Source: Candidatus Marinacidobacterium sp.
Lineage (GTDB): Bacteria > Acidobacteriota > Vicinamibacteria > Marinacidobacterales > Marinacidobacteraceae
Reading direction: 5' to 3'
DNA: 64,000 nucleotides
Assembly: GCA_965220965.1 (NCBI GenBank)
Contig: CBDCRI010000001.1
Location: 288,001 to 352,000, forward strand
The translations under genes and the position numbers were made by a program. Below the pieces are notes generated by a model. The model ran no database searches. It had not been told where the DNA came from and saw nothing but the letters and a program-made list of their open reading frames with translations. This document shows, piece after piece, positions 245-61,950 of this stretch; the first letter of the stretch is position 1, and each line of letters opens with the position of its first letter.

Positions 245-3200
245 CTACGGGGACATGCCGCCTGCGGCGGGGGGCCGTTTGGGTCCGGCGTCCGGCTCGT
301 CCGGCTCCAAGGGCGGGGGCACGAACGCCGCCTCCACGGCCGGCCAGCCCGGCGCGCAGAGCAGCGAGCCGCGGTCCCACGCCGCCTGGTCCAGCCAGCG
401 GCTGTTGCGGTCGCGCACCACGTACCCGCCGCCGGCATGGGGGAAGCTCTGCCAGTAGCCGCGGTGCGCCGTGAGCCACTCCCAAAGCAGGCCCTCGCCC
501 CGCGCGTCCGCGCTGAGGCGCACGGTGCCCGCGCCGCTCCTGTTGAAGTCGTGGCGGCCCCACGAGCCCACGGTCCTAAGCAGCGGCGAATCGGCAAAGG
601 CGAAGTGCCTTCCCATTGCGTAGGGCAGCGTGATGAGGTCCTTGGGCAGCCGGCTTGCCAGCGCGTGCGCCGAGCAGAGGTGGAAGCGCGCCATGAGGAG
701 GTGCTCGCGCGGGGCTTTGGGCCGCTCGTAGACCCTGTCCCAGTGCTCGAGGAAGCGTCCGCGCAGCCCCTCGGGAAGCCGCTCGTGGTAGCCGTACGCC
801 AGCAGGTCGACCGCCGCGAACCCCACCCGAACCGCGGTCGAGCCGTCCGGCGCGCGCCCGCGCACGCAGCCCATGGGCACCAGCAGGTCCACCTCCGGCG
901 CCCTGCCCTTCCACCGCCATTGGCGCCCCACCAAGCGCACCGCGTCCGCCATGGCCTCCAGCAGCTCCTCGCCCTCCCACTCGCCGCGCAGCAGGGCGGC
1001 GCCCCGCTCATCGGCCATCCATCGGTCCAGCCGCTCCCACATGCCGGGGGAGACGGCCAGCATGTCGGGCGTGGCGTCAACCCAACGCGGGCTCGGGACG
1101 CCGGGGTCGCGCCAAAGGAGCGCCTCGCCGCCGGCGCCGGGCGAGAGCAGGCCGCCGGGCGCCGGCGAGGGGCCGCCGACCCGGCGCCAGCCCGTGGCGG
1201 TCCGGCGCAGCACCGAGCGCTCGACGGCCTCGGGCTCGGTGGCGCGCGCCGGCTGCGGCGCCGGCCGCCGGTAGGCGGCCAGCTGGCCGTTGGCGAGGGC
1301 CGCCAAGGCGCAGGGCGCCCCCCCGGCCGGGCCGGCGGCCGCGTCGATGAGCGCCTCGGGGGCCGCCCGGCCTTCGGCCAGGGCGCCCAGCGTGCCCAGC
1401 AGCGAGGCGCAGGCGGCGTCGAACCCGTCCTCGCCGGAGCGGGGCATGGGGGCGTCGAAGACGCCCCGCTGCCAGGCGTAGGCGGCATCGGCCCACAGCG
1501 CCGCGGGATCCTCGACCCCCTCGGCCCGGGCCGCCGCCAGCACGACGGCGCGGGCGTCCGCCTGGTTGGCGCGCACCTCCCTCAGCACGCCCCGCAGCCG
1601 CTCGAAGCTCGCGTAGTAGCGCAGGTAGTGCACGCGCGAGCGCCTGGACAGCAGGTGGCGCTCGATCTCCGGGAGGTCGTCGACCCGCGGGGCGCACAGC
1701 GGCATGCCGGCATTCCCCCATCGGAGCCCGTCGCCGCCCAGCCCGTCCAGGAAGACCTTGGCCTGCTGGCTCTGGAAGCCGGGGCCTTCGCGGCGCGCGC
1801 GAACCATCGGCATCTCCACGTAGGGGCGCCCGTGCGAGAGGCGCACGGTGGCATGGCCGAACTGCTCCGCAACGTCCCACCACTGCCCCCGCAACGCCTT
1901 GTACCGCTCCCTCGGCACGAGCTCCTCGCAGGCGGCCACGGCGTGCCAGTTGCAGAGCAGGCGCGCGCCGGGGGCGATGCGCTGCGCGGTCAGGCGGCTC
2001 AGCGCCCCGTCGAGGGACTCCAGGGCGTCGTCCTCCAGCAGCGCCTCGTCGTCGGCCACCCACTTGAGCGCCGCCGGGGCCGCGTCGGCGTCGAGCCACA
2101 TGTTGGACGTCCCGGAGGCCCGGAACAGCGCCTCGCGGTCCTGGACGCCCGCCAAGGTCAGCATGATGGCGCGGTAGCTGCCCTCGAAGCGCCGCACGCC
2201 CTTGACGGAGCGGTCCCAGTCGACGTGGTCCGGCGTCACCCGCTCGTCCCTGCCGAGAAACCGGACGTAGCGCGTCTGGGCTTCGCGGAGGTCCTCCCCG
2301 GTGGGCCAAAGGCGCAGGCCCTGGTGGGCGACCGAGGGCGCGAAGATGGCCCACGCGCGCCCGCCGTCGCGGTAGAGGAACCAGCGCTCGCGGTTGGCCC
2401 TGTTGCGCTCGATGTCCGCAAGCAGCGCTCCGATCTGGTCCGCCAGGTCCTCGCCCAGCTCCCGGTGCGGCGTGTGGCCGTACTTGTCCTCGCGCCGCCA
2501 CTGCATGAGGCAGAGGCCGACCGGGGCGGGGATGATGCGGTCGAGCGTCGCGTCGTCGGCGCACAGGCGGTCGATGAAGTCCGGCCAGTCGGCGATGTCG
2601 GCGCCGCCGTGGGCGAGGTGGGCGATGTACTCCTCGTCCATGAAGCGCACCGCCTGGTACATGTGCACGGGGCCTTCGGCGGCCGCCGGCTCCCCGTCCC
2701 TGACCTGCACCACCTCGACGTCGCGGCCCATGTAGGCCTCGAACTTGAACAGCGCCTCCCGGATCCGCCCCACCGTCCTCTGCGGACCCACCATCAAGGC
2801 CTGGGCGTGGGCCTCGCGGTGGTCCGCGTGGGCGCTGAGGGCGTCGGTGAGCGCCTTGGTGCGGGCCTCGAGGGCCTCGGCCAGCGCGGTGACCTCGGGC
2901 TCGGTCGCCAGGATGGCCCGCGAGGCCGCCCGCCGTTCGTCCGCGGCCGCGCCGGGGCCCGGCAGCGGCAGGGGCCGGCTGGCGCGCGCCTCGATCGCGG
3001 CCACCGCCGCCTGCTGCGCCTCGGCCGCGGCCCGCGCGGCGGCGTCGAGCCGCTGCCAGACCTCGGACTGGTCCTCGAGGTGGACGTGGGCGCGCAGGAA
3101 CTCGTCGAAGTGCATCTTCTCCGAGTGCGCGCTGCGCGGCTGGGCGCCCGGGCGCGGGGCGTGGCGCACGGTGACGGCATGGACCTCGCCGTCGACCAGG

Positions 3201-3367
3201 TGGACGTCCTCGACCAGCGCCAGCCAGCCGTCCTCGCGGATTCGCCAGTGCTCCCCGGGCGTGGGCGTGATCGCCTCGATGCGGTCCACGCGGGCCGCCT
3301 CCGGGCGGGGGCGCTCGGCGGGAAGCCCGGCGGCCTCCCCGTCGGGATCGGCGTCGGGGGCGCTCAA
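245..3367 (-). CDS. Large hypothetical protein (~1040 aa)
   Basis: Protein-like part of ORF 245..4204. An in-frame TTG at 3367 overlaps the upstream TGA (TTGA), with GGAG upstream. Has a coiled-coil-like region and ends ...KRPPAAGGMSP. Confidence 0.75.
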   Translation of the reverse strand: MSAPDADPDGEAAGLPAERPRPEAARVDRIEAITPTPGEHWRIREDGWLALVEDVHLVDGEVHAVTVRHAPRPGAQPRSAHSEKMHFDEFLRAHVHLEDQSEVWQRLDAAARAAAEAQQAAVAAIEARASRPLPLPGPGAAADERRAASRAILATEPEVTALAEALEARTKALTDALSAHADHREAHAQALMVGPQRTVGRIREALFKFEAYMGRDVEVVQVRDGEPAAAEGPVHMYQAVRFMDEEYIAHLAHGGADIADWPDFIDRLCADDATLDRIIPAPVGLCLMQWRREDKYGHTPHRELGEDLADQIGALLADIERNRANRERWFLYRDGGRAWAIFAPSVAHQGLRLWPTGEDLREAQTRYVRFLGRDERVTPDHVDWDRSVKGVRRFEGSYRAIMLTLAGVQDREALFRASGTSNMWLDADAAPAALKWVADDEALLEDDALESLDGALSRLTAQRIAPGARLLCNWHAVAACEELVPRERYKALRGQWWDVAEQFGHATVRLSHGRPYVEMPMVRARREGPGFQSQQAKVFLDGLGGDGLRWGNAGMPLCAPRVDDLPEIERHLLSRRSRVHYLRYYASFERLRGVLREVRANQADARAVVLAAARAEGVEDPAALWADAAYAWQRGVFDAPMPRSGEDGFDAACASLLGTLGALAEGRAAPEALIDAAAGPAGGAPCALAALANGQLAAYRRPAPQPARATEPEAVERSVLRRTATGWRRVGGPSPAPGGLLSPGAGGEALLWRDPGVPSPRWVDATPDMLAVSPGMWERLDRWMADERGAALLRGEWEGEELLEAMADAVRLVGRQWRWKGRAPEVDLLVPMGCVRGRAPDGSTAVRVGFAAVDLLAYGYHERLPEGLRGRFLEHWDRVYERPKAPREHLLMARFHLCSAHALASRLPKDLITLPYAMGRHFAFADSPLLRTVGSWGRHDFNRSGAGTVRLSADARGEGLLWEWLTAHRGYWQSFPHAGGGYVVRDRNSRWLDQAAWDRGSLLCAPGWPAVEAAFVPPPLEPDEPDAGPKRPPAAGGMSP

Positions 3368-4386
3368 GGGGAGGGGCTCCGCAGCTTGGCGCCGGCCGCG
3401 CCCTTGGCGGGCGGGCCGCTCACGGAGCCGGCGGCGGCCTGCCGAAGCCGGTCCGCGGAAGCGGGCCCGCGCCGGAACCGTTCGAGCCGCGGCCCCTCGG
3501 CCGGGCAAAGGCCCCAGCCCGCCCGGAAGCCCGCGCTGGGCAGGATGCCGTCGTCGCCGTGCCATTCGAGCCAATCGAACGCGACGGGATCCAGGCCGGC
3601 CTCGGCCGACAGGGCGCTGACCGCCTCCGCGCAGGGGGCGAGCGGGGCCGCCGCCTGCGAGAAGACGGCCGGCCCCCCGATAGTCATGTTGAGCCAGGCC
3701 ACCGAAGCGCCCGGCGCGAGCACCGCAAGGGGCGCATCGCTCCCGCAGGCCGCCTTGAGGCCAGGGCCGTTGCGGGCGGCAATGCGGGCGAACAGGCGGC
3801 CGGCAAGCGCCGCCTCGGGATCGCCCCCGCGCCGCAAGGGGAACAGCTCGCCGAGGGGCACCCGCTCGCCGCGGCGCGCGCGCCGCCAAGGCAGCTCCGA
3901 TCGCAGGACCGCCCGCAGGGCGCCGCCGACCACCCGGAAGGCGTCGCGCGGGGCGCCGACGTCGATGGCGAACCGGGTCCTGGGCGGCACCGCCCGCCCG
4001 GATCGGGACGCCTCCCCCGGCGCCCCGAAGGCGGCCAGCCTCGCCGCACGGGCGCCGCAGGGCGCGTCCAGGGCGTGCCCGTCGGGCAGGGGCTCGCCGG
4101 ACAGGGCGAACCGCGCCGCCCGCCGGATCGCCGCGGGGGACGGCTTGCGCCCGGGCTCGGGGGGCGTGCCGCCCGCATGGCCGGTCATGGCCCCAACGCA
4201 CCACCAGAACGCCGCCTCCCCGGGCAGGGGGGCGGCCTCGGGCGCCGCGGCGTCAAGCGCCGCGCCGTCGTCCAGGGCGGCCTTGAGGGCAGCGGCCGCC
4301 GACGGACTCCGGAAGTCCGGCGGCGCCGAGATCACCGCCATGAGCAGCTTGGGCGCGTGCTTGCGCAGCAGGTCCTCAGGGGTCAT
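3364..4386 (-). CDS. Hypothetical protein, paralog of 4426..5433
   Basis: GGAGG RBS before ATG. Aligns end to end with its neighbour (MTPxxLLRxHAPxL, PGEAAFW, ELPWRRxRRGERVP, LDPVAFxW). Ends LRSPSP. Confidence 0.8.
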   Translation of the reverse strand: MTPEDLLRKHAPKLLMAVISAPPDFRSPSAAAALKAALDDGAALDAAAPEAAPLPGEAAFWWCVGAMTGHAGGTPPEPGRKPSPAAIRRAARFALSGEPLPDGHALDAPCGARAARLAAFGAPGEASRSGRAVPPRTRFAIDVGAPRDAFRVVGGALRAVLRSELPWRRARRGERVPLGELFPLRRGGDPEAALAGRLFARIAARNGPGLKAACGSDAPLAVLAPGASVAWLNMTIGGPAVFSQAAAPLAPCAEAVSALSAEAGLDPVAFDWLEWHGDDGILPSAGFRAGWGLCPAEGPRLERFRRGPASADRLRQAAAGSVSGPPAKGAAGAKLRSPSP

Positions 4387-4425
4387 GCGTCCTCCTTTTT
4401 CTCCAATGTCCGCATCCGGCCCGGA

Positions 4426-5433
4426 TCAGGGCGACGGAGCGCCCGCCCCACCGGCGGCCGCGGCGCCCAGGGAAGGCAGCCCGGCCCCGCGCGCGTGCAG
4501 GTCCTCCGGCCGCGCCGCAAGGGGCCGTGGCCCCTCCGCGGCGCAGAGCACCCAGCCGCGGCGGAAGCTGCCGGCGTCGGCCTCGCCGCCTTCGCGGCGG
4601 AACTCGATCCACTCGAAGGCCACCGGATCGAGGCCGCCCTCCCGCACCAGGGCGCTGGCGGCCTCCGCGCAGGCATCGACCGAAGCCTCCAGCCTGGAGT
4701 CCACCTGCACGGTGCCGGGCGGCAGCCCCGGCCCCTGCCAGCGCACGCGGGCGCCGGGGGCCAGGGCCGCAAGCGGGGCCTCGCCGCCGCACGCGGCCGC
4801 AAGGCCGGGGCCGGCCCGGAAGGCGATCGTGGAGAAAAGCCGGCCCGCCAGGTCCAGTGCGCGGTCCCGCTCATGGTCGGCCTCAAGCGGGAACAGGTCG
4901 CGGGGGGGCACCCGCTCGCCACGGCGCTGGCGCCGCCAAGGCAGCTCCCGGCGCAAAACCGCCCGCAGGGCCTTGCCCGCAATCCAGGTCTCGCGAAGGG
5001 GCGTTCGGAGCTCGATGGCGAAGCGCGACTGGGCCGCCGCGGCGCCGCCCGCAAGGCACGTCCCGACGGCGGCGAGCCGCGCGGCGCGCACGCCCGGCCG
5101 GGCGTCCAGGGCCAGGCCCGCGGGCAGGGGCTCCCCGGCCGCGGCGCGCTCAGCGTTGCGGCGGACGCCGTCAAGCAGCTCAAGGGCCGCCGTGCTCCGC
5201 TCCGGGTGCGGCAGGTCGCAAAGGCGCAGCAGGCTCTCGACGCACCGCCAGAAGGCCGCCTCCCCGGGCACCGGGTCGGCGTCGGGGAACGCCTCGCAGA
5301 GCGCCTCCTCATCGTCGAGCACGGCGCTGAGGTCGGCGAGCATGGCCGGGCCGGCCGCCTCCCGAAGGCCCGCCTCGCGGATGCGCGCGATCAGGTTGGG
5401 GGCGTGCCTCCTGAGCAGCTCGTGGGGCGTCAT
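4426..5433 (-). CDS. Hypothetical protein, paralog of 3364..4386
   Basis: Start MTPHELL with AGGAGG RBS and an upstream TATAAT (5464-5469, minus strand). Ends GAPSP. Confidence 0.8.
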   Translation of the reverse strand: MTPHELLRRHAPNLIARIREAGLREAAGPAMLADLSAVLDDEEALCEAFPDADPVPGEAAFWRCVESLLRLCDLPHPERSTAALELLDGVRRNAERAAAGEPLPAGLALDARPGVRAARLAAVGTCLAGGAAAAQSRFAIELRTPLRETWIAGKALRAVLRRELPWRRQRRGERVPPRDLFPLEADHERDRALDLAGRLFSTIAFRAGPGLAAACGGEAPLAALAPGARVRWQGPGLPPGTVQVDSRLEASVDACAEAASALVREGGLDPVAFEWIEFRREGGEADAGSFRRGWVLCAAEGPRPLAARPEDLHARGAGLPSLGAAAAGGAGAPSP

Positions 5434-20232: not shown

Positions 20233-20341
20233 GCGTTTCCCTCCCTTTCGGCCGGCATCGCCGACGTTGCGCAACGCGTCCATTGTAGGGTCCGCAATGG
20301 GCGGCGGCTCTTAAAGGCCGCCCACCGCGCCTGGGCGGACG

Positions 20342-49163: not shown

Positions 49164-49679
49164 ATGAACCGAGACGCAACTGACCTCCTGCCCGCCTGGG
49201 CGGTCGAGTACCCGCACCGCGGCGACCCCGTGGCCTACCGGATCGAAAGCCTGGAGAGGCTCGAGGCGCTCGCTCAGGAGGCGGTCGGCAACGGCAAGCA
49301 TCTGCATCAGACGACCACGTTCGCCGAGGCGCTGGGGATTTTCGGGGACCTGGACGACATGCGCGAGGCCGGCGGCGCCTGGGCTCGGCTGGCCGACGAG
49401 CGCGCCGGCGTCGTGGTGCAGTCGCCGGGCGAGGACGAGTGGCTCGCGGCGATGCCCCAGCGCAGCTGGCGCGACCGCTACGAGGAGGCCGTCGATGCGC
49501 TCAGGAACGACCTGAGCCACCTCAAGCTGGTGCCGGAGTCCAGGCTCGACGCCGCGCTCGCGGACCCCGCGGAGTGGGAGGGCCGTTGGGGCCAGTGCGG
49601 CGGGCCGGCCGGCCAGCGGGCGCTGGCGGCCGAGACGGACGGCTGGCCGCGGACGCGGGCGCCCTCCCCCGCCCCGTGA
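49164..49679 (+). CDS. Hypothetical protein
   Basis: GGAG RBS, protein-like composition, ends RTRAPSPAP. Confidence 0.65.
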   Translation: MNRDATDLLPAWAVEYPHRGDPVAYRIESLERLEALAQEAVGNGKHLHQTTTFAEALGIFGDLDDMREAGGAWARLADERAGVVVQSPGEDEWLAAMPQRSWRDRYEEAVDALRNDLSHLKLVPESRLDAALADPAEWEGRWGQCGGPAGQRALAAETDGWPRTRAPSPAP

Positions 49680-49994: not shown

Positions 49995-51227
49995 ATGTGG
50001 ATGTGGGAGAGGCCGGACTGGCCGGAATTCAGGTTCGAGGAGGGTCGCTTGGCGGACGCCATGAGGCGCTTCGCGGAGGCGGACGCGGGTCTCGTCGGCC
50101 GCTCGGAGGGCTTCGGGGACGAGTGGCGCCGGGAGCTGGCCGTCGAGCTGATGTTCGCCGAGGCGCTGGCGTCGCACGCCATCGAGGGCGAGGCGCTTGA
50201 CAGCGAGTCGGTGCGCTCGTCGCTGCTGCTGGCCCTGGGGGGGCTGTCGGAGAGCCCGCGCCGGGACCCCCGGATCGCCGAGGGCGGCGCCGTCGCCCTG
50301 ATCCTGGACGCGCGGCGCCATTGGGACCAGCCCCTGACCAAGCAACGGCTGTGCGCCTGGCAGTCGATGGCGCTCGCCGGCCGGGCGAAGCCCACTCTGG
50401 AGGTCGGCGACTACCGGAGCGGCCCGGAGAAGATGGGCATCGTCAGCGGCAACGGCAGCCTGCACGGGTTCAAGCCCATGCGCGTGCACTACGAGGCGCC
50501 GCCCTCCGACCGCGTGCCCGCCGAGATGGCCCGCTTCCTTGAGTGGTTCAACGCCTCGCGCGGGCGCATCAACGGCCTGGCGCGCACGGCGGTGGCCCAC
50601 CTCTGGTTCGAGAAGATCCACCCGTTCGACGACGGCAACGGCCGCGTCGGGCGGGCGCTGGCGGACCTGGCGGCCTCGCAGGCGCTCGGGCGCCCGACGC
50701 TGTCGTGCCTGGCCACGGCCATCAACCAGGACCGCGACCCCTACTACCGCGCCCTGGAGCAGGCCGGCCGGGACGGCATGGACGTCAACCCCTTCCTCGA
50801 CTACTTCGCGGGCGTGGCGCTGCGCGCCCAGGAGATCGCCCTTCGGGAGGTGCGCTTCGTGCTCGGCAAGGCGCGCTTCTTCAGCCGCTTCGACGCCCGG
50901 CTCAACGCCCGGCAGCGCAAGGCGGCGCTGCGCGTCTTCGCCGAGGGCTCCAAGGGCTTCGCCGGCGGCCTGTCGCGCAACAACTACCAAGCCATCACCA
51001 AGGCCTCCAGCGCCACCGCCACCCGCGACCTCGCCGACCTGGTGCGCATCGGCGCCATGACATCGGCCGGCGAGGGCCGCAGCGTGCGCTACGCGCTGGC
51101 GACCGACCCGCCCCAGCACCTGCTGCTGGAGGCGCTCGCGGACGGCGCGCCCGCCGGCGCCGCCCCCGAGGCCGAAGCGCACGGCCAGCCGCGGCGCCGG
51201 TCGAGGAGCGCCTCCCCAGGCCCCTGA
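49995..51227 (+). CDS. Fic-family protein (DUF4172-type N-terminus, C-terminal HTH)
   Basis: MW.WE.PDWPEF, S.AIEGE, HPFDDGNGRVGR and Y..ITKASSATATRDL motifs. Confidence 0.92.
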   Translation: MWMWERPDWPEFRFEEGRLADAMRRFAEADAGLVGRSEGFGDEWRRELAVELMFAEALASHAIEGEALDSESVRSSLLLALGGLSESPRRDPRIAEGGAVALILDARRHWDQPLTKQRLCAWQSMALAGRAKPTLEVGDYRSGPEKMGIVSGNGSLHGFKPMRVHYEAPPSDRVPAEMARFLEWFNASRGRINGLARTAVAHLWFEKIHPFDDGNGRVGRALADLAASQALGRPTLSCLATAINQDRDPYYRALEQAGRDGMDVNPFLDYFAGVALRAQEIALREVRFVLGKARFFSRFDARLNARQRKAALRVFAEGSKGFAGGLSRNNYQAITKASSATATRDLADLVRIGAMTSAGEGRSVRYALATDPPQHLLLEALADGAPAGAAPEAEAHGQPRRRSRSASPGP

Positions 51228-51428: not shown

Positions 51429-52343
51429 ATGGCGCAGCGCACCGTCAGATTGCGGCCGGATGCGGCCCGCGAGGCCATCCTCGCCCGGACCTGCCCGCCG
51501 AACGCCGTCGTGGCCGGCGACCTGTTCCTCACCGGGGAGCCGTGGCTGACCCGGCTGCCCGAGGGCCTCAGGGTCGAGGGCCGGCTGGGGATCAGCGGCT
51601 GCCACCGCCTCGCGGGGCCCATCATCGGGCTGTCGGCGGACTCGCTGGAGATCTCCGACTGCGCCGCCCTGGTGGGCTTGATCGAGGACTCCGCGCAGGG
51701 CCTCCTCGTGCCCGGGGACCTGGTCCTGCAGGACTGCCCCGTGCTGGACCTCTTTCCCGAGGTGGCCGCCATTCGGGGCGACCTCCATGTCAGCAACTGC
51801 GGTCTGGGCTGGATGCAAATGGGCCATGGGGAGCCTTGGAAGCTCGCCGTCGGCGGCTCCGCGACGATCGAGGGGTGCGTCGGCCTCAAAAGCCTGCCGC
51901 TGCAAATGGCCGTCGGCGGCGACCTGCACATCCTGGACTGCCCGCAGCTCGGCCGCAGCAGCTGGAGGCCGTCGCCGGACGTGTCCGTCGGCGCGGCCTG
52001 CCGCATCCAGCGCTGCCACGCCCTCCGGCGATTGCCGTCCATCGCGTTCCGGGGGGAGGGCCACCTGCGCATCGCCGAATGCCACAGCCTCTCCGCCGTC
52101 TGGGAGGACGTGCGGCCGCGGGGGTCCCTGCACCTCGATGACTGCCCGCTGCTGTTGCACCTGCCCGACGGGCTCGCCTTGAGCGGCAGCCTCCATGCGA
52201 CCGATTGCCCCGCGCTGGAATGGCCGGACGGCCTTGACGTCCAGGGGGAGGTCAGGGCCTTGGGCACCACCCCGCGCCGGGTGCCGCCCTCGGCAGGCCC
52301 CGCCGAAGGGCGCGGCAAGGCGCCGGCCGGCCCGGCCCCCTGA
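51429..52343 (+). CDS. Cys-rich LRR-like repeat protein, paralog 1
   Basis: Repeats of LxxLPxxLxVxGxLxIxxC and shared N-cap AxEAILxGxCP. Confidence 0.8.
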   Translation: MAQRTVRLRPDAAREAILARTCPPNAVVAGDLFLTGEPWLTRLPEGLRVEGRLGISGCHRLAGPIIGLSADSLEISDCAALVGLIEDSAQGLLVPGDLVLQDCPVLDLFPEVAAIRGDLHVSNCGLGWMQMGHGEPWKLAVGGSATIEGCVGLKSLPLQMAVGGDLHILDCPQLGRSSWRPSPDVSVGAACRIQRCHALRRLPSIAFRGEGHLRIAECHSLSAVWEDVRPRGSLHLDDCPLLLHLPDGLALSGSLHATDCPALEWPDGLDVQGEVRALGTTPRRVPPSAGPAEGRGKAPAGPAP

Positions 52344-52434
52344 GGGCCTGCGGCCCGGCGCCGCCCAGCCGGCCCCGCGGTTGCTAGAATCCCGCCGGGC
52401 CCCGCGCAGGGCGGGGCGGCGACGGGAGTGAGGC

Positions 52435-53331
52435 ATGGCGAACGGCACCGTCATCATGGCCCCGGAGGAGGCGAGCGAGGCGATCCTGGCCGGGACCTGC
52501 CCGGCCGGCGCCGTGGTGGCGGGCCACCTGACGCTGCACGGCGAGCCCTGGCTGGCCGAGCTGCCCAAGGGCCTTTCGGTCGAGGGGCGGCTGCGCATCG
52601 CCGGCTGCCACCGCCTCAAGCGGCTGCCCGAAGGGCTGTCGGCCCTCGGCCTGGCCGTCGAGAACTGCTGCCTCCTCGAGGGGTTCGACCACGCGGCCTC
52701 GCTGCGGTTCGAGACGCCCGGCGACCTCTCCTTCAGCAACTGCCCTTCGCTGCGGCTGCTCCCGGTTGAGGCCGCCGCCGGGGGCGACCTGACCATCAAG
52801 GACTGCCAGCGGGCCTTCGGCCACTCGACGGGAGGGCCCGCGCTTGCGCCGCGGGCGCTCCAGGCGGGCGGCAGCGCGTTCCTCGCGGGCCTCCCCGGCC
52901 TGGTCGAGCTTCGCGGCCGCATCCGCGTCGGCGAGAGCCTGGAGATCGACGGGTGCCCGTTCCTGGCCCAGGTGGGCGGCGGCCCCGAGCGCATCCGCGT
53001 CGGCCGGGGCTGCCGGATCGCCCGCTGCCACGCCCTCAGGACCGTGGCGGGCATCGAGTTCGCAGGGGACCGGGGGGAGCTGGCCATCCGCCACTGCACG
53101 GCGCTGGAGTCCATCGGCGACGACGTCCGCCCCTCGGGCAGCCTGGCGGTCATCGGCTGCCCCTCGCTCCCGCGGCTGCCGAGCGGCCTGGCCCTGGCCG
53201 GGAGCCTGTGGGCCAACAACTGCCCCGCCCTGCGCCTGCCCGACGACCTCGAGGTGCGGGGGAGGGTCTGGCAATGGGGCGTGGACATGCGCCGGGCGGC
53301 CGCCAAGGGCGGCCCCTCGCCCTCCCCCTGA
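52435..53331 (+). CDS. Cys-rich LRR-like repeat protein, paralog 2
   Basis: Same architecture, ends GGPSPSP. Confidence 0.8.
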   Translation: MANGTVIMAPEEASEAILAGTCPAGAVVAGHLTLHGEPWLAELPKGLSVEGRLRIAGCHRLKRLPEGLSALGLAVENCCLLEGFDHAASLRFETPGDLSFSNCPSLRLLPVEAAAGGDLTIKDCQRAFGHSTGGPALAPRALQAGGSAFLAGLPGLVELRGRIRVGESLEIDGCPFLAQVGGGPERIRVGRGCRIARCHALRTVAGIEFAGDRGELAIRHCTALESIGDDVRPSGSLAVIGCPSLPRLPSGLALAGSLWANNCPALRLPDDLEVRGRVWQWGVDMRRAAAKGGPSPSP

Positions 53332-53403
53332 AGCGCGCCCGGCCACGCGCTCGGCTGCCGGAATCGACGGACCCGCGCGCAACGCGGACCGGAAGGAGCG
53401 AAC

Positions 53404-54327
53404 ATGGCGAAGCGAACCGCCCGGCTGGCGCCGGCGCAGGCCCAAGAGGCCATCCTCAAGGGGGAGTGCCCGCCCGGCGCGGTGGTGGAGGGGGGCTTGG
53501 CTTTCGTCAGCGAGCCGGGGCTGGCCGAGCTGCCCAGGGACCTCACGGTGCTGGGGCCGCTGCAGGTCGACGGCTGCCACCGGCTCAAGCGGCTGCCCAA
53601 GGGGCTGTCGGCGACCGCCCTCAGCGTCCGCGAATGCGCCTCCCTCGAAGGCTTCGAGCCCGCCCCCGGAACGGCGTTCCAAGTGGACGGCGACCTGCTG
53701 TTCAGCAAGTGCCCGTCGCTGGCGCGCTTCCCGGAGGCCCTGGAGGTCGGGCGCGACCTGACCCTCAAGGACTGCCACCAAGCCTGGACCAACCCGATGG
53801 GGCTGCCCCTTTGGGTGCCGGAGCGGGTTCGGGTGGGCCGCGCCGCGGTCCTCGACGGCTGCGTCGGCCTCACCGAGCTGCCGGGCCGCATGGAGGTCGG
53901 CCTGGAGCTGCGGATCATCGGCTCCCCCTTCCTTGCCGAGATCAGGGCGGAGGAGGGTTTCGGGACGCTCACGGTCGGGACCGCCTGCCTCATCAAGCGG
54001 TGCCATGGCCTGCGCCGCGTGGCGAGCCTTTCGTTCGCGGGCGAAGGCGAGCTTGCGGTCATCGACTGCGACGCGCTGGAGGCCATCGGCGACGGCGTCC
54101 GGCCCCAAGGGCGGCTGGCGCTCATGGACTGCCCGTCGCTGGCGCGGCTGCCCAGGCGCCTCGACCTGAAGGGCAGCCTGGTGGCCGACAACTGCCCGTC
54201 GCTGGGGGCGCCGCCGGCGGGGATCCGGGCGCGGGAGGGGCTCTGGCCCTCGGGGACGACGCCGCGCTGGGCGGACGCCCCGGCGGCTGCGGCGCCGGTC
54301 GGACGCCCCACCCGCCAGGCCCCTTGA
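53404..54327 (+). CDS. Cys-rich LRR-like repeat protein, paralog 3
   Basis: Same architecture, AAGGAG RBS. Confidence 0.8.
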   Translation: MAKRTARLAPAQAQEAILKGECPPGAVVEGGLAFVSEPGLAELPRDLTVLGPLQVDGCHRLKRLPKGLSATALSVRECASLEGFEPAPGTAFQVDGDLLFSKCPSLARFPEALEVGRDLTLKDCHQAWTNPMGLPLWVPERVRVGRAAVLDGCVGLTELPGRMEVGLELRIIGSPFLAEIRAEEGFGTLTVGTACLIKRCHGLRRVASLSFAGEGELAVIDCDALEAIGDGVRPQGRLALMDCPSLARLPRRLDLKGSLVADNCPSLGAPPAGIRAREGLWPSGTTPRWADAPAAAAPVGRPTRQAP

Positions 54328-54428
54328 GCGGGCGCGGGGCGCCGTCCGGCGCCCGGTTGCTAGAATCCCTGCGCCGCCACCGCCCAGGCGACTGGGCCGG
54401 CCGCCCGCAAGCCAGCTGAGGGACGCCC

Positions 54429-55376
54429 ATGACGCAACCCGACCCACACGCCAGCGCCGGCCCATTCCACCCCGATGGCTTCCGGGAGGATGCGGTCCGC
54501 ACTGGCGCCATGATGTCTCCCGAGGAGGCGCACGAAGCGATCCTGAAGGGGACCTGCCCCCCCGGCGTGTCGGTGCATGGCAGCCTGGCCTTCCTCAACG
54601 AGCCCTCGCTGGCCGAGCTGCCCCGCGGCCTCGCGGTCGAGGAAGGCCTCGACATCCTGGGCTGCCACCGGCTCAGGCGCCTGCCGGCCGGCCTTTCGGC
54701 CCGTTCGGTCTCGGTCAGCCACTGCGACGCCTTCGAGGGGTTCGACGTCCACGCCTTCGACCGCTTCTTCGTGCCGGGCCACCTCGTGCTGCTCGACTGC
54801 CCCTCCCTGACCGCCTGGCCGCGGGAGCTTTACGTCGGGGGCCAGCTGCGGGTCGCGAGATGCCAGTGGGCCTGGGACAGGCCCGCGCTGCCAAGGGGGG
54901 CGGGGGCGCCGTTCAGGCTGTCGGTGGGCGGCCAAGCCGATCTCGAGGAATGCGCGGGCCTGCGCGAGCTGCCCCGGGAGGTCGAGGTGGGAACCTCGTT
55001 GACGCTCTCCCGGTGCCCGCGGATGACGGCCCTGCCCGGGGCTCGCGGCGGGCGCCTCGTCGTGGGGGACCTCTGCGTCGTCGAGCGCTGCCACGGCCTG
55101 CGGGAGCTGTCGCGCGTCAGCTTCCGCGGGGAGGGCAAGCTGCGGGTGCGCGACTGCGCCGCGCTGGAGGTCGTCGGCGACGGGGCGAGGCCGGGCGCGA
55201 CCCTGGCGCTGGCCGACTGCCCGTCGCTGTCGCGGCTGCCGAGCCCCCTGCCCCCGTCCTGCCGCCTGGCGGTCCGCAACTGCCCCAAGCTTCAGGCGGA
55301 CGGCGAAGCCAAGGCGGCGCAAGGCCATGCCCGCCAGGCCGGCGCTGGGCCCCGCGCCCCGTCGCCCGCGCCATGA
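54429..55376 (+). CDS. Cys-rich LRR-like repeat protein, paralog 4
   Basis: Same architecture, ends RAPSPAP. The true start may be slightly downstream. Confidence 0.8.
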   Translation: MTQPDPHASAGPFHPDGFREDAVRTGAMMSPEEAHEAILKGTCPPGVSVHGSLAFLNEPSLAELPRGLAVEEGLDILGCHRLRRLPAGLSARSVSVSHCDAFEGFDVHAFDRFFVPGHLVLLDCPSLTAWPRELYVGGQLRVARCQWAWDRPALPRGAGAPFRLSVGGQADLEECAGLRELPREVEVGTSLTLSRCPRMTALPGARGGRLVVGDLCVVERCHGLRELSRVSFRGEGKLRVRDCAALEVVGDGARPGATLALADCPSLSRLPSPLPPSCRLAVRNCPKLQADGEAKAAQGHARQAGAGPRAPSPAP

Positions 55377-55503
55377 CGCGCCGCCCCGCCGGCCCGCGCA
55401 AGCCACTCGCCAAGCCCGTCCGGCCCCGCCCCTTCGGCTGCGCTGCGGGCGCTGCCGCCGCCATCGCGCCGCGCCCGAGGGCCGGACGCGCCAGGGGGGC
55501 GGC

Positions 55504-56436
55504 ATGGCGCAGCCAACCCTCCGAATGACCCCAACGGAGGCCCGCAGGGCCATCCTCGACGGCACCTGCCCGCCGGGCGCGACCGTCGAGGGCTCCCTGA
55601 GGATCGAGCGGGAGCCGGGGCTGACGCGGCTGCCCGACGGGCTCTCGGTGCACGGCGGGCTGCGCATCGTCGGCTGCCACCGCCTGCGGCGGCCGATCTC
55701 CGGGCTGTCCGCGCAGTCGATCGAGGTCAGGTCGTGCAGCGCCTTCGAGGGCTTCGACGGCGGCAGGGACGGGGCGCTGCGCGTGCCAGGGCGCTTCGAC
55801 CTGTTCGACTGCCCCTCCCTTGCCCGCCTCCCGCGGGCGCTTCACGTCGAGTTCGGGCTGTGGATCGAGCGCTGCCCATGGGGGTGGGCGAGCGCGCCCG
55901 GTTGGCTCCCGCGGGCGCCGCAGCGGCTCGAGGTGGTCGGGCCGGCCCTCTTCGCGGACTGCCCCGGCCTTGCCAGGCTGCCGAAGGCGATGGAGGTCGG
56001 CGGGGGCTTGACGGTGCGGCGATGCCCGCACCTTCGGGCCGTGGGGGGGCTGGACGCCGACGTGCGCCTGCGCATCCGGGGCGACTGCGTCATAGAGCAG
56101 TGCCATGGCCTGCGGGAGGTGGATTTCGTCGACTTCTGGCCGGGCGGCGACCTGCGCGTCACCGACTGCGCGGCGCTGGAGCGGATCGGCGACGAAGCGC
56201 GGCCGCAGCGCTGCCTCGTCGTCCGCGAGTGCCCGTCGCTGTCTCGGCTGCCCAGGCGCCTGTTCCTCGACGGCGACCTGGTGGCCCACGACTGCCCCTC
56301 GCTGAAGGAGAGGCCGCAGATCACCGTGCTGGGCGACATCCTCCCAACCGGCGCGACGCCCCGCTGGGAGGCCCCGCCGACGGCCGCCGAAGCGGCGCGC
56401 GGGCCAAGGCGCCGCGCCCCTTCGCCCGGAGCCTGA
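55504..56436 (+). CDS. Cys-rich LRR-like repeat protein, paralog 5
   Basis: Start MAQPTLRM chosen by alignment to the paralogs. Confidence 0.8.
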   Translation: MAQPTLRMTPTEARRAILDGTCPPGATVEGSLRIEREPGLTRLPDGLSVHGGLRIVGCHRLRRPISGLSAQSIEVRSCSAFEGFDGGRDGALRVPGRFDLFDCPSLARLPRALHVEFGLWIERCPWGWASAPGWLPRAPQRLEVVGPALFADCPGLARLPKAMEVGGGLTVRRCPHLRAVGGLDADVRLRIRGDCVIEQCHGLREVDFVDFWPGGDLRVTDCAALERIGDEARPQRCLVVRECPSLSRLPRRLFLDGDLVAHDCPSLKERPQITVLGDILPTGATPRWEAPPTAAEAARGPRRRAPSPGA

Positions 56437-56564
56437 GGCGCCGCCCGCCGAGCCGGCGGGCCATCCCGCGAAGCCGCGCGCAACGCCGCCCGCTCGGCCC
56501 CACCGCGGGCGCGGTTGCTAAAATCCCGCAACGCTCAAACGCCAGTCCGAAAAAGGGGGAAGGC

Positions 56565-57494
56565 ATGGCGCAGTCACGCATCCGAATGGGGCCGACGGCC
56601 GCCCGCAAGGCCATCCTCGACGGCACCTGGCCGCCGGGCGCCGTGGTCGAGGGCGACCTGCGCCTCGATCGGGAGCCGGGACTGGCGGAGCTGCCCGACG
56701 GGCTGGCGGTGGAGGGCGAGCTGCGCATCGACCGCTGCCACCGGCTGGCGCGGCTGCCGAAGCGGCTGGCCGCCCAGGGGGTCCGCATCACGACCTGCGA
56801 CGCCTTCCAAGGGCTCGGCCCCGGCGAGGCCGCCTTCTGCGTGCCCGGCGACCTCAACCTGATTGACTGCCCGGCCCTGGCCCACTTCCCAGGGGAGCTG
56901 GTCGTGGGGGGCGACCTGCGCATGGGGGAGTGCCCAAGGGCCTGGTCGGACCCGAGCCGGTCGGGCCAGGGCGCTCCGGAGCGGCTCATCGTGGGCGGGT
57001 CGGTGGCGATCGAGGAGTGCGCCGGCCTCGCCGGGCTGCCCCACGAGATCGACGTCGGCGGGGACCTGAACGTCGCGCGCTGCCCGAAACTGGTCGCGGT
57101 CGGCGGCGGGCCCGGCGCCCGGATCGCCGTCGGCGAGGGGCGCATGGTCCACATCGAGCGCTGCAACGGCCTGTGGCTCGTAGCGTCCATCGAGTGGCGC
57201 GGCGGCGGCACTCTGCGGATCACGGACTGCGCCGCGCTGGAGCGCATCGCCGACGGCGTGCTCCCGCAGTGGAGCCTGACGGTCCACAACTGCCACTCGC
57301 TGACGCGGCTGCCGAGCCGCCTTGTCCTTGACGGCGACCTGGTGGCCCACGACTGCCCCTCGCTGAGGACCGTGCACCCCCCGGACGTGAACGGCAACAT
57401 CATGCCTACCGGCACCACGCCCCGCTGGGAGGTGCTGCCGACGCCCGCGGAGGCGCCCTATTCGCGGCGCCGCGGCCCGTCGCCTTCTCCCTGA
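56565..57494 (+). CDS. Cys-rich LRR-like repeat protein, paralog 6
   Basis: Start MAQSRIRM, ends RRRGPSPSP. Confidence 0.8.
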   Translation: MAQSRIRMGPTAARKAILDGTWPPGAVVEGDLRLDREPGLAELPDGLAVEGELRIDRCHRLARLPKRLAAQGVRITTCDAFQGLGPGEAAFCVPGDLNLIDCPALAHFPGELVVGGDLRMGECPRAWSDPSRSGQGAPERLIVGGSVAIEECAGLAGLPHEIDVGGDLNVARCPKLVAVGGGPGARIAVGEGRMVHIERCNGLWLVASIEWRGGGTLRITDCAALERIADGVLPQWSLTVHNCHSLTRLPSRLVLDGDLVAHDCPSLRTVHPPDVNGNIMPTGTTPRWEVLPTPAEAPYSRRRGPSPSP

Positions 57495-57528
57495 CCCGCC
57501 GCCCGCAAGGCCGCCCCGGGGAGGCAGC

Positions 57529-58449
57529 ATGGCCAAGGGAGCCATTCGAATGACCGGCGAGGAGGCGCGCGAGGCCATCCTCAAGGGGGAGTGCCCGCCC
57601 GGCACGACCGTCCGGGGCAGCCTGGCCTTCCGCCGGGAGCCGTGGCTCACCCAGCTGCCCCGAGGCCTGACCGTGGAGGGAACCCTGTCCATCGTCGAGT
57701 GCCACCAGATGCACTCGCTGCCGAGCAACCTAGCGGCGGAGGGGCTCACGATCTCCAACTGCGCCCAGATGCAAAGCCTGGGACGCGTCAACCGACCGCC
57801 CCTGCACCTCCCGGAGGGCCTGCTTCTGCAGGGCTGCCCCGCCTTGGCCGAGCTTCCCGACGACGTCGCCGTCGGGGGCGACCTGCACATCCAGGACTGC
57901 CCGTGGCTCTGGCCGGGGCCGCGCGTCGGGCGACCGCGCTCCGTGCATCTCATCGGGCCGCGGCGGCTGTCGGTGGAGGGATCCGCGACGCTGCGCGAGT
58001 GCGCGGGCCTCTACAGCCTGCCGGACCGCATGGCGGTGGGCGGCGCGCTGACGATAGCCGACTGCCCTGGGCTCTCCGGCATCGGCGGCCCGGACGGCGA
58101 GGCCGGCCTCGCCGTCGGCGGCGCCTGCCTCATCGAGCGCTGCCACGGCCTGCACGAGGTGAGCGGCATCGCCTTCGGAGGCGGCGGCCTGCTGCGCGTC
58201 GACGACTTCAGCGGGCTGGAGGCGCTCGGCGACGGCGTGCGCCCGCCGCGCCGCCTGGAGGTGCGCGGCTGCCCGTCGCTGGTCCGGCTGCCGCGCCGCC
58301 TCGCGCTCGAGGGCGCCTTGGTGGCACACGACTGCCCGTTGCTCGAGGCCCCCGACGGGGCCGTCGCGCGCGGCGGCGTCCGGGCAACCGGCAGCACCCC
58401 GCGCTGGGAGGCCGCGCCCGATCGGCGCGCGCCCTCCCCCTCGCCCTGA
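57529..58449 (+). CDS. Cys-rich LRR-like repeat protein, paralog 7
   Basis: GGAGG RBS, ends RRAPSPSP. Confidence 0.8.
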   Translation: MAKGAIRMTGEEAREAILKGECPPGTTVRGSLAFRREPWLTQLPRGLTVEGTLSIVECHQMHSLPSNLAAEGLTISNCAQMQSLGRVNRPPLHLPEGLLLQGCPALAELPDDVAVGGDLHIQDCPWLWPGPRVGRPRSVHLIGPRRLSVEGSATLRECAGLYSLPDRMAVGGALTIADCPGLSGIGGPDGEAGLAVGGACLIERCHGLHEVSGIAFGGGGLLRVDDFSGLEALGDGVRPPRRLEVRGCPSLVRLPRRLALEGALVAHDCPLLEAPDGAVARGGVRATGSTPRWEAAPDRRAPSPSP

Positions 58450-58461
58450 GAGCGCACGGGG

Positions 58462-59573: not shown

Positions 59574-60337
59574 ATGGCGACATCCGGGACCCGCATGACC
59601 CCGGACGAGGCCCGCGAGGCCATCCTCGGCGGCGCCTGCCCCGACGGCGCCCAGTCCGCGAGGCCGGCCCGATCCGCCTGCCCGCCGGCCTCACGGTGGA
59701 GGGCGGCCTGCACGCCAACGAGTGCCCGGGGCTCAGGCACCTGCCGCGGGGGCTGTCGGCGGCGTCGGTGGCCGTCGAGGCCTGCGCGGCCTTCGAGGGC
59801 TTCGATCCCGAGTTCGAGGGGGCCTTCCGCGTGCCCGGGAACGCCCACTTCCTCGCGTGCCACGCCCTGGCCCGGTTCCCGGAGGAGGTCGCGGTCGGGG
59901 GACACTTCGACCTCACGCGCTGCGCGCGCGCCTGGGCGGGGCCGTCCGGGACGCCGAGAAGGCTCACGGCGGGAGGCAGGGCGGTCCTCACCGGATGCGC
60001 GGGGCTCAGCGAGCTGCCGGAGGAGATGGCGGTCGGCCAGGCCCTGCTGCTGATCAAGTGCCCGAGCCTGCGCAGCGTGCCCCATGGCGAGGGGGCGGGC
60101 GCCCCCCGCGCGGGCGCCTACGCCGGCATCTTCCGCTGCGACGGCCTGGAGCGCGTTGACGGGATCTCGTTCGAGCCGGGCGGCGTCCTGGAGGTGGTGG
60201 GCTGCCGCAGGCTCAGGTCCATCGGCGACGGCGCGCGGCCGGAACGGCTGTCCGTGGAGGGCTGCCCGCTGCTGGAGCGGCTGCCGCAGCGGCCGGCCTC
60301 CCGCCCCGCCTCCCGCAAAGGCCCGCCGTTGCCCTGA
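59574..60337 (+). pseudogene. LRR-like paralog 8, frameshifted near 59655
   Basis: The N-cap MATSGTRMTPDEAREAILGGACP is in one frame. The repeats (LPAGLTVEGGLHANEC...) continue in another frame after a short deletion. Confidence 0.75.
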
Positions 60338-60603: not shown

Positions 60604-61950
60604 ATGCGCCTGTCCGTCCTCCTACACGATGAGCTTGCCGTCGAGCTGCAGGCCGATCCGCGGCAGCGGGCCGCCATCCTGACGCGGGGGGCCGCGATGC
60701 GGTGGCTCTCCGCCGCCTGGACGGGCGATGAGGGACTCAACCCCATGGTCAATTGGCTCGAGGCGCTCCTGCCGGAAAGCGGCAAGCTTGAGCGATGGCT
60801 GGGGCAGACGCGGGGGAGGCTGCTCGCAGGCGGCGTCGAGGACCGGCCCCACATTCCGGAAACGACGCTTTGGATGCATGCGGACGCGGAGTTTGCGGGC
60901 GCCGTGTCCCTCGTTCGGGACCAAGGCTCCCCCCGGAAGGCCCTGCCCATGGACTCCTCCGCCTATCGGAGGCTCGATGAGAAGGACGTTGGGCGGCTGC
61001 TTCTCGACGAGAACCAATTGGCCGGACGCGCGAAGGGCTCCCCCCGGGGCATTGAAGGGCGGGCGCGATCCTCGCTGTCCGGGATGCGTCCGAAGATCAC
61101 CCTGACGGCCGTTGACGGCGATCCGGACCGGGGCTGGGCGCAAGGGGAGCCTGGGCAGCTGAACACTTGGATCGTCAAGCATGAGCACAGCCCGAACCTC
61201 CCCGGGGAGGCCGGCGTGGAGGCGGTTTGCCAAAGCGCGCTGGACCTTGCCGGGGTGCCGGCGGCCCGCACGCTGTCCCGGGTGATTGACGGCATGCAGT
61301 GCGTCCTGAGCGAGCGCAGCGACCGGGCCGTCAGGGACGGGGCGGTCGTGCCGGTCCACCAGGAGGACTATCGGCAGGCGGCGGGCAAGGGGATCGTGAA
61401 GTTTCGCGAGGCCGTCCAGCCGCGCAGCGAGTGGCCCTTTGCCTACCGGCTGCTGGACGGCGAGGCCGAGCGTGAGGCGCTGACCCGCTTCCTGGCGGGG
61501 TCGTGGCTGTTGGCGCACTGCGACCTGCACAGGGGCAACTTGGGCTTCACCATCACCCAACGGGGGGCGGGGCCGAAAAGGGCGTCCGTGGCGCCGGCGT
61601 ACGACGTGTCGAGCGCCGTCGGCACGAAGCTGAGCGCAAGGCTTGAGTTCCCCATCGCCGCGCAGGGCGACCCCGCGAAGATCAGCGTCCGCCAATGGGC
61701 CGCGCACGCCAGGGAGTGCGGAATCGAGGAGGATGCCACGCTGGAGGCGGTTTCGAGCGTCGCGCGGGCGATGCCTGGCGCCCTCGCCCAAGCCATGGCC
61801 GACGCACGGGCGGGCCATGAGAACATCAGGCAGGATGCGGTCGATGCGCGGTGCGCGGCGGTGATGGGGCACGTCGTCGCCCGCGCCGACCGCTTCGAGC
61901 AGGACTTGGCACGGAGGATGAGGAGGGCCTTCGACGCGCCGGGGCCTTAG
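60604..61950 (+). CDS. hipA: HipA-family kinase
   Basis: N-terminal W...LLPE, then SLSGMRPK, WIVK, HQED..QA, DLHRGN and APAYDV motifs. Confidence 0.85.
   Translation: MRLSVLLHDELAVELQADPRQRAAILTRGAAMRWLSAAWTGDEGLNPMVNWLEALLPESGKLERWLGQTRGRLLAGGVEDRPHIPETTLWMHADAEFAGAVSLVRDQGSPRKALPMDSSAYRRLDEKDVGRLLLDENQLAGRAKGSPRGIEGRARSSLSGMRPKITLTAVDGDPDRGWAQGEPGQLNTWIVKHEHSPNLPGEAGVEAVCQSALDLAGVPAARTLSRVIDGMQCVLSERSDRAVRDGAVVPVHQEDYRQAAGKGIVKFREAVQPRSEWPFAYRLLDGEAEREALTRFLAGSWLLAHCDLHRGNLGFTITQRGAGPKRASVAPAYDVSSAVGTKLSARLEFPIAAQGDPAKISVRQWAAHARECGIEEDATLEAVSSVARAMPGALAQAMADARAGHENIRQDAVDARCAAVMGHVVARADRFEQDLARRMRRAFDAPGP

Follow-up and report, generated by a model that had tools for sequence, protein, structure and literature searches.

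Why should proteins of unrelated families, encoded side by side on one replicon, end in the same kind of short tail with Pro as the last residue? The question is raised by a 64,000-nt stretch of DNA from Candidatus Marinacidobacterium sp. (hereafter the window; C2:288001-352000, where C2 is the second replicon of this genome). An earlier note on the window had listed 21 open reading frames (ORFs) with usually Arg- or Lys-containing, Pro-terminal tails and proposed that the tails mark their carriers for export by a type IV secretion system (T4SS). Our analysis partly supports this proposal, as far as sequence data allow: we consider the chances even that the Pro-ended tail is a plasmid-specific C-terminal cargo tag, read by the coupling complex of a type IVB secretion system (T4BSS).

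The genome consists of two contigs (3.25 Mb in total, 71% guanine plus cytosine, GC), the chromosome C1 (2.88 Mb, 71.3% GC) and C2 (363 kb, 73.4% GC), the latter being a conjugative megaplasmid with a type IVB system. Since such GC-rich DNA is full of spurious long ORFs (the window contains 249 ORFs of at least 100 aa, many of the long ones spurious), we built a gene caller that uses codon log-likelihoods trained on 494 long ORFs and greedy removal of overlaps. With this caller C1 has 2232 genes, C2 has 319 and the window has 46.

Distribution of the Pro-terminal motif

All 21 ORFs of the earlier note end in Pro with the tails that it quoted, and its near-miss ends (PAPG, PGPA, PSPGA, PAPAV and PAPGR) are also as given. 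The stops of the listed ORFs are correct, while the starts of three (245..4204, 20342..22252 and 55734..57494) were placed too far upstream, these being shorter genes with the same stops.

The note had suggested a comparison with chromosomal genes, and at similar GC content the difference is large: according to our gene calls, Pro is the last residue in 21 of the 46 window genes and 117 of the 319 C2 genes (36.7%), compared to 215 of 2232 on C1 (9.6%; Fisher test, p = 5e-32). By position, Pro accounts for 36.7% of C2 residues at -1, 10.7% at -2 and 31.7% at -3. The most frequent terminal tripeptides of C2 are PSP (27 genes), PAP (22) and PGP (12), and none of them is among the top 15 on C1. 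Terminal P[SAG]P is found in 61/319 genes of C2 and 13/2232 genes of C1, while internal tripeptide frequencies predict 1.0 and 3.7, respectively. Counted by distance from the C2 gene end, the pattern occurs 61 times at offset 0, 7 times at offset 1, 19 times at offset 2 (a count that contains PxPxP double counts) and 0-8 times at each offset beyond. The penultimate residue of Pro-terminal C2 genes is Ala, Ser, Gly or Arg in 104 cases out of 117.

The tails are low-complexity Ala/Gly/Pro/Arg stretches, and their basic character, emphasized in the earlier note, is confirmed. In particular, the last 20 residues have a net charge of +1.45 in genes ending with PxP (Pro at both -1 and -3), +0.46 in C2 genes with another last residue and +0.09 on C1, and Arg is the most frequent amino acid at positions -7 (21/67) and -8 (16/67) of the PxP tails.

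After trimming of the last 30 residues, the 67 PxP-ended proteins of C2 fall into 41 BLAST families. The domains found in tagged proteins include AbiEii, Fic, HipA-like, N6_Mtase, HD_4, PIN, DUF2513, DUF3085 and AAA_16, and many further carriers are orphans. In toxin-antitoxin-like pairs the toxin is tagged and the upstream partner is not. The housekeeping proteins of C2 mostly lack the tag, and so do, as the earlier note had observed, the cas genes of the window, the RecQ-UvrD fusion and the C-5 methylase; the WYL protein that it added to this untagged set could not be confirmed as such (no Pfam hit at 1e-5). The motif is rarer in the T4SS-rich block of C2 (39-124.7 kb), where 15 of 80 genes end in Pro and 5 of 80 in PxP, than in the remaining part of the replicon (102/239 and 62/239). 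Moreover, tagged proteins are depleted in membrane-like segments, which occur in 1/67 PxP proteins versus 34/202 untagged ones (p = 5e-4).

A non-adaptive account would be that GC-rich low-complexity 3' extensions ending in CCN-stop have been spread among paralogues by duplication and gene conversion. Non-gene ORFs of C2 (at least 60 codons) show what such DNA yields by itself: P[SAG]P ends only 24 of 2880 (0.8%) and Pro 15.8%, and from the rarity of P[SAG]P we conclude that the motif is a property of the coding frame. The tag is also missing from chromosomal genes with similar GC content, 41 families carry it, blastn reveals no common 3' cassette, and a plasmid with 52.8% GC, described below, shows the motif in 40-fold excess. 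GC composition as the cause is thus ruled out by C1, by the non-gene ORFs of C2 and by this plasmid. The account does agree with the low-complexity Ala/Gly/Pro/Arg composition of the tails, with a general third-base shift at the last codon (see below) and with the presence of 18 of the 67 PxP genes in one family of leucine-rich repeat (LRR) proteins, 9 of them having the same 12-mer CCCTCCCCCTGA. Still, being already largely refuted, it is very improbable. The 12-mer itself has 9 matches in the genome, all on C2, and not more than 5 per genome in the other 400 genomes of the class, among the matches listed; it is a narrow marker that mostly tracks the LRR family.

Peptide, RNA and DNA features of the gene ends

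The gene ends indicate that selection acts on the peptide. Pro in the last position is encoded by all four codons, and no conserved DNA was found 3' of the tagged stops. A terminator hairpin or DNA repeat at the stop was considered and rejected, the minimum free energy and the pairing of the last three codons being alike in PxP and non-P genes; downstream GGGG runs are equally frequent in both. A mobile 3' cassette was rejected as well, since all 82 cross-family blastn hits are short and weak and downstream DNA is common to one adjacent gene pair only. The same applies to a +1 or read-through extension at CCC-TGA, as the extension lengths in the three frames are like those of other genes. The tagged genes do not form a compositional class either (GC content at third codon positions 0.93 versus 0.95), and in their choice of stop codon and in the base that follows it they are close to other genes.

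Special usage of the last codon was also dismissed. CCC is in excess mostly because the third base is shifted at last codons in general, on C1 as well: in all four-fold families at the last sense codon, throughout C1 and C2, G in the third position is under-used, while C and A are over-used. This shift is a genome-wide effect of the termination context.

These observations bear on the possibility that the feature is a termination signal, with Pro before the stop slowing release and so affecting expression, tmRNA tagging or the fate of the mRNA. There is a precedent, as C-terminal Pro-Pro hampers termination and causes ssrA tagging in E. coli (PMC3834316, citing Hayes et al. 2002), and C2 contains a truncated RF1-like gene and an RtcB gene. 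But Pro-Pro-stop is found in just 4 of the 117 Pro-terminal genes, position -2 being dominated by Ala, Ser, Gly and Arg; stop choice, next base, frame extensions and RNA folding near the stop are about the same as in other genes; the preference for CCC is mostly the last-codon effect of C1; and the tag of the megaplasmid pMPPla107 (see below) contains no Pro. A termination signal is the least probable of all the explanations considered here.

The tail as a C-terminal addition

The tail is a C-terminal addition to soluble proteins. As the earlier note had stated, it lies beyond the recognizable domains: in AbiEii and HipA proteins the Pfam matches stop 31-66 residues short of the C-terminus.

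The tagged family FAM0 comprises 25 tandem LRR paralogues, of which 18 end in PxP. Its repeats of about 22 residues (LxxLPxxLxVxGxLxIxxC) produce no Pfam LRR hit at 1e-5, but form a beta-solenoid in the AlphaFold2 model. In an alignment of 18 sequences (17 of them PxP-ended) the tail diverges in all columns but two, the invariant ones being the final Pro and that at -3. The tail is predicted to be disordered: in the model of one paralogue the predicted local distance difference test score (pLDDT) is 91 for the body and about 50 for the last ~17 residues. The top Foldseek matches of the body are LRR proteins with weak E-values, the best being XopL (E = 8e-3). A word-indexed protein search with this family gave just two matches, both from this contig. 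A profile search covering 1.84 billion proteins mostly retrieved long fusion proteins with LRRs, and 9 of the 135 non-own hits were Pro-ended; a few short non-own relatives end in ...KSASPAP, ...SASPSPG and ...TAPPGP.

Twenty-four of the 25 FAM0 genes are situated near the contig ends (C2:339450-363057 and 14-8034), the remaining one at C2:239791-241398. The ends of the C2 contig are themselves paralogues, 85-87% identical, and do not represent an overlap. In one untagged member (C2:360475-361779) the 12-mer of the usual ending is found 53 nt 5' of the stop, which suggests that this is a frameshifted copy.

The Fic protein of the window is 410 aa long, while most of its homologues among the matches listed have 366-400 aa and other ends, so that here, too, the tail is an addition. 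The two closest homologues from other sources, both 411 aa long (68% and 64% identity), have different basic tails, ending in RPSP and GRGP. Of the 11 members of one Fic cluster (90% identity), 6 end in GRGP, 2 have a shorter tail ending in SPSP, and 3 differ. Two contigs of gammaproteobacterial metagenome-assembled genomes (MAGs; L020 and L021, 63-64% GC) carry the 68% identical Fic homologue, whose basic tail ends in ...RPSP (or ...CPSP).

Such tails could in principle act after delivery, as short linear motifs addressing proteins of a target cell (substrates of proline-directed kinases or SH3/WW ligands). Patterns like P-x-S-P and R-x-P-x-P-x-P do occur in them, and the LRR body is similar to the LRRs of effectors and NLRs, XopL being its best structural match (see above). 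Phosphorylation, however, cannot be general, because 34 of the 67 PxP ends have Ala or Gly in the middle. Moreover, SH3/WW-type ligands are, to our knowledge, not strictly bound to the last residue, and the DLGL end of pMPPla107 proteins is unrelated. A role after delivery is therefore improbable.

Secretion machinery of C2

The note's proposal implied a secretion system and a coupling protein linked to the tagged genes, and C2 does encode both, in the form of a type IVB (Dot/Icm, IncI-like) system. Pfam and NCBIfam searches identify DotI/IcmL, DotG/TraO, DotH/IcmK, DotD, a TraI-like protein, DotA/TraY, DotB/TraJ and DotM/IcmP, nearly all NCBIfam hits being under the equivalog cut-offs and DotA/TraY above its subfamily cut-off. 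The coupling protein is TrbC/DotL-like (799 aa), and a match to IcmJ/DotN is weak. VirB-type (type IVA) families are absent from the 319 C2 proteins at the Pfam threshold of 1e-5. What fits the cargo proposal is the presence of a machine on the replicon, the soluble carriers, the toxin-like enzymes among them and the recurrence of such tags on further type IVB megaplasmids (see below); the machine is of type IVB and not of the VirB/D4 kind, and the tail is not Glu-rich.

The coupling protein has no close relative in 40 related genomes (a single weak match, E = 7e-4, covers 63 residues). Its best matches in PLSDB, with 46-50% identity, are from Pseudomonas and Vibrio megaplasmids of 0.9-1.2 Mb, including pMPPla107. 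For DotM only three homologues were found, all distant. Overall, a DotL-type coupling protein is encoded by all four megaplasmids examined, and a DotM-like protein by C2, the Acetobacter persici plasmid pAC1084_1 and the Vibrio vulnificus record.

Terminal motifs of other type IVB megaplasmids

The LRR family has matches on two Acetobacter megaplasmids only. One of them, pAC1084_1 (NZ_CP014688.1; 526 kb, 52.8% GC), encodes a DotL-like protein 37% identical to that of C2. In an annotated 41-kb sample of this plasmid Pro is last in 12 of 43 coding sequences (CDSs). In the whole record (loci L044-L070, 481 own gene calls) the most frequent terminal tripeptides are PSP (10), PTP (6) and PAP (5), and terminal P[STAE]P is found in 25 of 481 genes with 0.63 expected, a 40-fold enrichment. 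Since this plasmid is only 52.8% GC, base composition is excluded as the cause. The carriers include AbiEii, Fic, HipA and DUF7007 proteins and an LRR homologue, and membrane-like segments are seen in 0/28 PxP proteins versus 54/424 untagged ones. The tails of pAC1084_1 are acidic, with a net charge of -3.9, so that between the two plasmids the Pro cap is conserved and the tail charge is reversed. In the aligned stretch of the DotM-like proteins the net charge is about -4 on C2 and about +3 on pAC1084_1, that is, opposite to the tails; being a hand count for two proteins, this is only a hint of charge opposition between DotM and tail.

On pMPPla107 (NZ_CP031226.1) the ending is different. In its T4SS region Pro is last in 1 of 49 CDSs, whereas in the 400 kb between positions 200001 and 600000 (loci L071-L090) 97 of the 449 genes terminate with [LIM]G[LIM], which takes the form LGL in 86. 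Extended upstream, the motif reads R(-11) D(-10) x x [FLMI] [GA] x D L G L, and its codons vary. The tagged proteins form 53 BLAST families, and membrane-like segments are again restricted to the untagged set (0/97 versus 59/352); pooled over the three plasmids, the counts are 1/192 and 147/978. All eight gene calls checked match annotated CDSs. None of the 90 tagged proteins scanned has a Pfam domain, and the tagged set of pMPPla107 might therefore be a single, very divergent superfamily. The same 400-kb sample also contains 10 PxP ends, five of them ...DDSPSP.

In the first 400 kb of the V. vulnificus megaplasmid (NZ_CP015514.1, positions 1-400000, loci L092-L111) 24 of 526 genes end in AA, often after Glu, a modest excess in an uncontrolled count.

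Three forms of ending are thus seen: basic ...P-x-P on C2, acidic ...P-x-P on pAC1084_1 and ...RDxx[FLMI][GA]xDLGL on pMPPla107. We tentatively suggest, at slightly less than even chances, that giant type IVB (mating-pair formation class MPF_I) plasmids each possess a private consensus C-terminal tag by which several tens and up to about a hundred soluble proteins are directed to their own coupling complex, tag and receptor co-evolving.

Possible reader and cargo of the tag

The cargo tag is the simplest reading of the data, because the tag is end-anchored and peptide-level, the carriers are unrelated soluble proteins, the tags are plasmid-specific, and a Dot/Icm-like coupling protein is common to the plasmids. 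Its core would be a small residue followed by Pro at the free C-terminus, usually P-[S/A/G]-P, on a short disordered tail with, on C2, Arg or Lys 5 to 12 residues upstream. Soluble plasmid proteins, most of them accessory and toxin-like, would thereby be addressed as cargo to the Dot/Icm-like type IVB machine for secretion and conjugation that C2 encodes. Among this cargo would be many orphans as well as LRR proteins, HipA-like kinases, AbiEii nucleotidyltransferases and Fic, HD and PIN proteins. In machines of the Dot/Icm class, C-terminal signals are known to be read by the DotL-DotM(-DotN) complex, which is the likely reader here, too, acting in the cytoplasm. We infer recognition by the coupling complex, export, and a target cell that may be a recipient bacterium or a eukaryote. 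Meir et al. 2018 (PMC5802825) report binding of Glu-rich C-terminal signals by DotM and propose that in other species DotM has co-evolved with different effector tails.

Several observations weigh against this reading. The basic tail of C2 is unlike the known Glu-rich Dot/Icm signal, and among the Glu-binding residues of Legionella DotM only R314 and R315 could be mapped, corresponding to R and T, so that R314 is conserved. Some tagged proteins are unlikely cargo, namely the TraI-like T4SS protein (...PEPAP), Cse2 in the cas operon (...GDPSP), ParA (...EESP) and the prepilin peptidase (...GGSP), and up to 37% of the proteins of the replicon would be substrates. The recurrence of the tag is in part a matter of shared ancestry, given the 18 LRR paralogues and the nine genes with CCCTCCCCCTGA. 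If the T4SS-rich block of C2 is set aside, the depletion of membrane-like segments loses significance (1/62 tagged versus 11/137, p = 0.11). The neighbours of the tagged Fic homologue on the two MAG contigs are mostly untagged. Finally, the V. vulnificus megaplasmid, whose DotL is 50% identical to that of C2, has no PxP ends in its first 400 kb, where Pro is last in 6 of 526 genes.

Part of this evidence would fit a reader other than the T4SS: a protease or its adaptor (the tag being a degron or an anti-degron), a chaperone, or a localization receptor of the PDZ or TPR type, controlling the level or place of costly proteins. The motif coincides exactly with the free C-terminus, the tags differ from plasmid to plasmid, as would be expected with a private reader, toxins that need dose control are among the carriers, and export of Cse2, ParA and the TraI-like protein is improbable. 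No cytoplasmic candidate for such a reader was found among the 319 C2 proteins (Pfam, 1e-5), though, the lone PDZ protein being presumably outside the cytoplasm, and the machinery present on all four megaplasmids is the T4BSS coupling protein of the DotL type. We consider a reader of this kind unlikely.

If the cargo-tag reading is true, the cargo could be listed straight from sequence, amounting to about 60-117 proteins on C2 and at least 97 in the pMPPla107 sample, and these would be the first T4BSS signals readable by eye. Megaplasmids would carry large injected proteomes of toxin-like enzymes, LRR proteins and hundreds of orphans, and the tag would provide the first functional handle on most of the 'dark matter' genes of giant plasmids. 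Co-evolution of signal and receptor would become testable, given the basic tails of C2 and the acidic ones of pAC1084_1. Conjugative megaplasmids might then also inject LRR proteins and toxins of toxin-antitoxin type (HipA, Fic, AbiEii) into other cells. Even with another factor as the reader, a replicon-private C-terminal code on unrelated proteins would still be an unreported layer of plasmid biology.

Tagged genes of the window

At the beginning of the window, on the minus strand, there are a 1040-aa orphan without a Pfam hit (245..3367), which ends in ...AAGGMSP and hence is Pro-terminal but not PxP, and two paralogous orphans (family 30) of 340 aa (3364..4386, tail ...AKLRSPSP) and 335 aa (4426..5433, tail ...GGAGAPSP). 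An AbiEii-family nucleotidyltransferase (15245..16204, plus strand), with AbiEii at residues 35-265 of 319 and the tail ...GGVRRRPPSP, is preceded by an untagged partner (14811-15245). It is followed by a Pro-terminal 192-aa orphan (19050..19628, plus strand, ...AKAGPTSP) and two DUF2513 paralogues on the minus strand: one identified by Pfam (19828..20283, tail ...GPRPPAPGP), the other, of 170 aa, assigned to family 31 (20342..20854, tail ...APKQCSPSP).

Another gene on the minus strand (20962..22320) encodes a protein with PDZ and peptidase M48 domains, the sole PDZ protein found on C2 (Pfam, 1e-5, 319 proteins). The earlier note had named it, as a caveat, a probable lipoprotein with a similar tail; its N-terminus (LLQGC) is indeed of the lipoprotein type, while its end, PPAPGR, is a near-miss and the protein does not count as tagged. 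Further minus-strand genes encode an AAA_33 kinase-like protein (22418..23050, Pfam; Pro-terminal ...NRSAKLP), a 207-aa orphan (26740..27363, tail ...EPGTPGPAP) and a second AbiEii-family protein (39694..40476, Pfam, families 14/15), which ends in ...ASGAMRP and again has an untagged upstream partner (40473-41012).

The remaining tagged genes are on the plus strand. Two orphans, of 371 aa (47258..48373, ...NASACGP) and 171 aa (49164..49679, tail ...RTRAPSPAP), precede the DUF4172+Fic protein (49995..51227), whose tail ...PRRRSRSASPGP extends about 30 residues beyond most homologues. Then follow seven tandem Cys-containing FAM0 paralogues (51450..58449), six of them Pro-ended: five have PxP ends (PAGPAP, PSPSP, APSPAP, PSPSP and PSPSP) and one ends in TRQAP, while the seventh, within the array (55525-56436), is a near-miss ending in PSPGA. 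A short FAM0 paralogue (59696..60337, tail ...SRKGPPLP) and a HipA-like kinase (60604..61950, HipA_C at residues 156-391 of 448, tail ...RRAFDAPGP) complete the set. Contigs of three public runs from other studies match positions 49900-58500 of the window identically in fragments at low depth, with invariant tails, which indicates that the element occurs in other samples.

Other features of C2

Besides the genes discussed above, C2 encodes DnaB (two copies), the alpha subunit of DNA polymerase III, ribonucleotide reductase (RNR; two copies), single-stranded DNA-binding protein, sigma factors, RtcB, five C-5 methylases and a type IVb pilus. There are two CRISPR-Cas loci. One, with Csc2, a helicase and Cas1/Cas2, is a lower-GC island (61-64% GC) in the window (29431-37756); the other, of the Cse2/Cas7/Cas5/Cas6e type, is at C2:155572-160276, and its Cse2 is the only PxP-ended protein of the two loci.

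The truncated RF1-like gene (C2:189085-189834, equal to L011:2990-3739, plus strand) has the PCRF and RF-1 domains and the GGQ motif but lacks the N-terminal domain. It contains an in-frame TGA at a position that is presumably occupied by Trp in E. coli RF1, and is a pseudogene unless the TGA is read through or recoded. The RtcB gene (C2:138111-139346) is 50 kb away.

Comparison with known systems

C-terminal signals of type IV secretion are already known; what is new here is a consensus terminal tripeptide on a fifth to a third of a replicon, with related megaplasmids having private tags in parallel. Effector sets have been found by machine learning and screens because signals for type IV secretion are difficult to define. 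A literature search, with supplementary files outside its reach, found nothing on such a tag, and the words 'C-terminal', 'secretion signal' and 'effector' are absent from the text of the pMPPla107-family paper (PMC6482414).

The closest parallel is Dot/Icm of Legionella. The machine on C2 is of the same class, and in both cases the signal (for C2 only a predicted one) is contained in the disordered last 20 or so residues of many soluble proteins from unrelated families; the strongly acidic tails of pAC1084_1 also resemble the Dot/Icm E-block. Unlike Dot/Icm, the C2 tails are basic (+1.45) and not Glu-rich, and the system is plasmid-borne and may serve conjugation. Moreover, on C2 the last three residues follow a sharp consensus, while PMC3915618 and PMC5802825 describe the signals of Dot/Icm substrates as compositional.

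The net positive, Arg-rich, unstructured C-termini of C2 proteins are similar to the VirB/D4 signals of Agrobacterium and Bartonella, but the C2 machine is of type IVB. As far as we know, a strict Pro cap is not part of the VirB/D4 signal. A terminal tripeptide that peaks at the very end of unrelated carriers is reminiscent of the peroxisomal targeting signal PTS1 (-SKL-COOH) and of PDZ and TPR ligands; these systems are eukaryotic or unrelated, and the likeness is one of logic only. In Pro-stop pausing (YbeL-PP, TnaC) Pro is likewise decoded last, but the Pro-Pro context is avoided on C2.

Finally, C2 resembles the pMPPla107 family and other MPF_I megaplasmids in having a type IVb pilus, Dot/Icm-like genes, RNR, RtcB, AbiEii, many orphans and a replicon-wide tag, the difference being the tag itself, which on pMPPla107 is ...RDxx[FLMI][GA]xDLGL.

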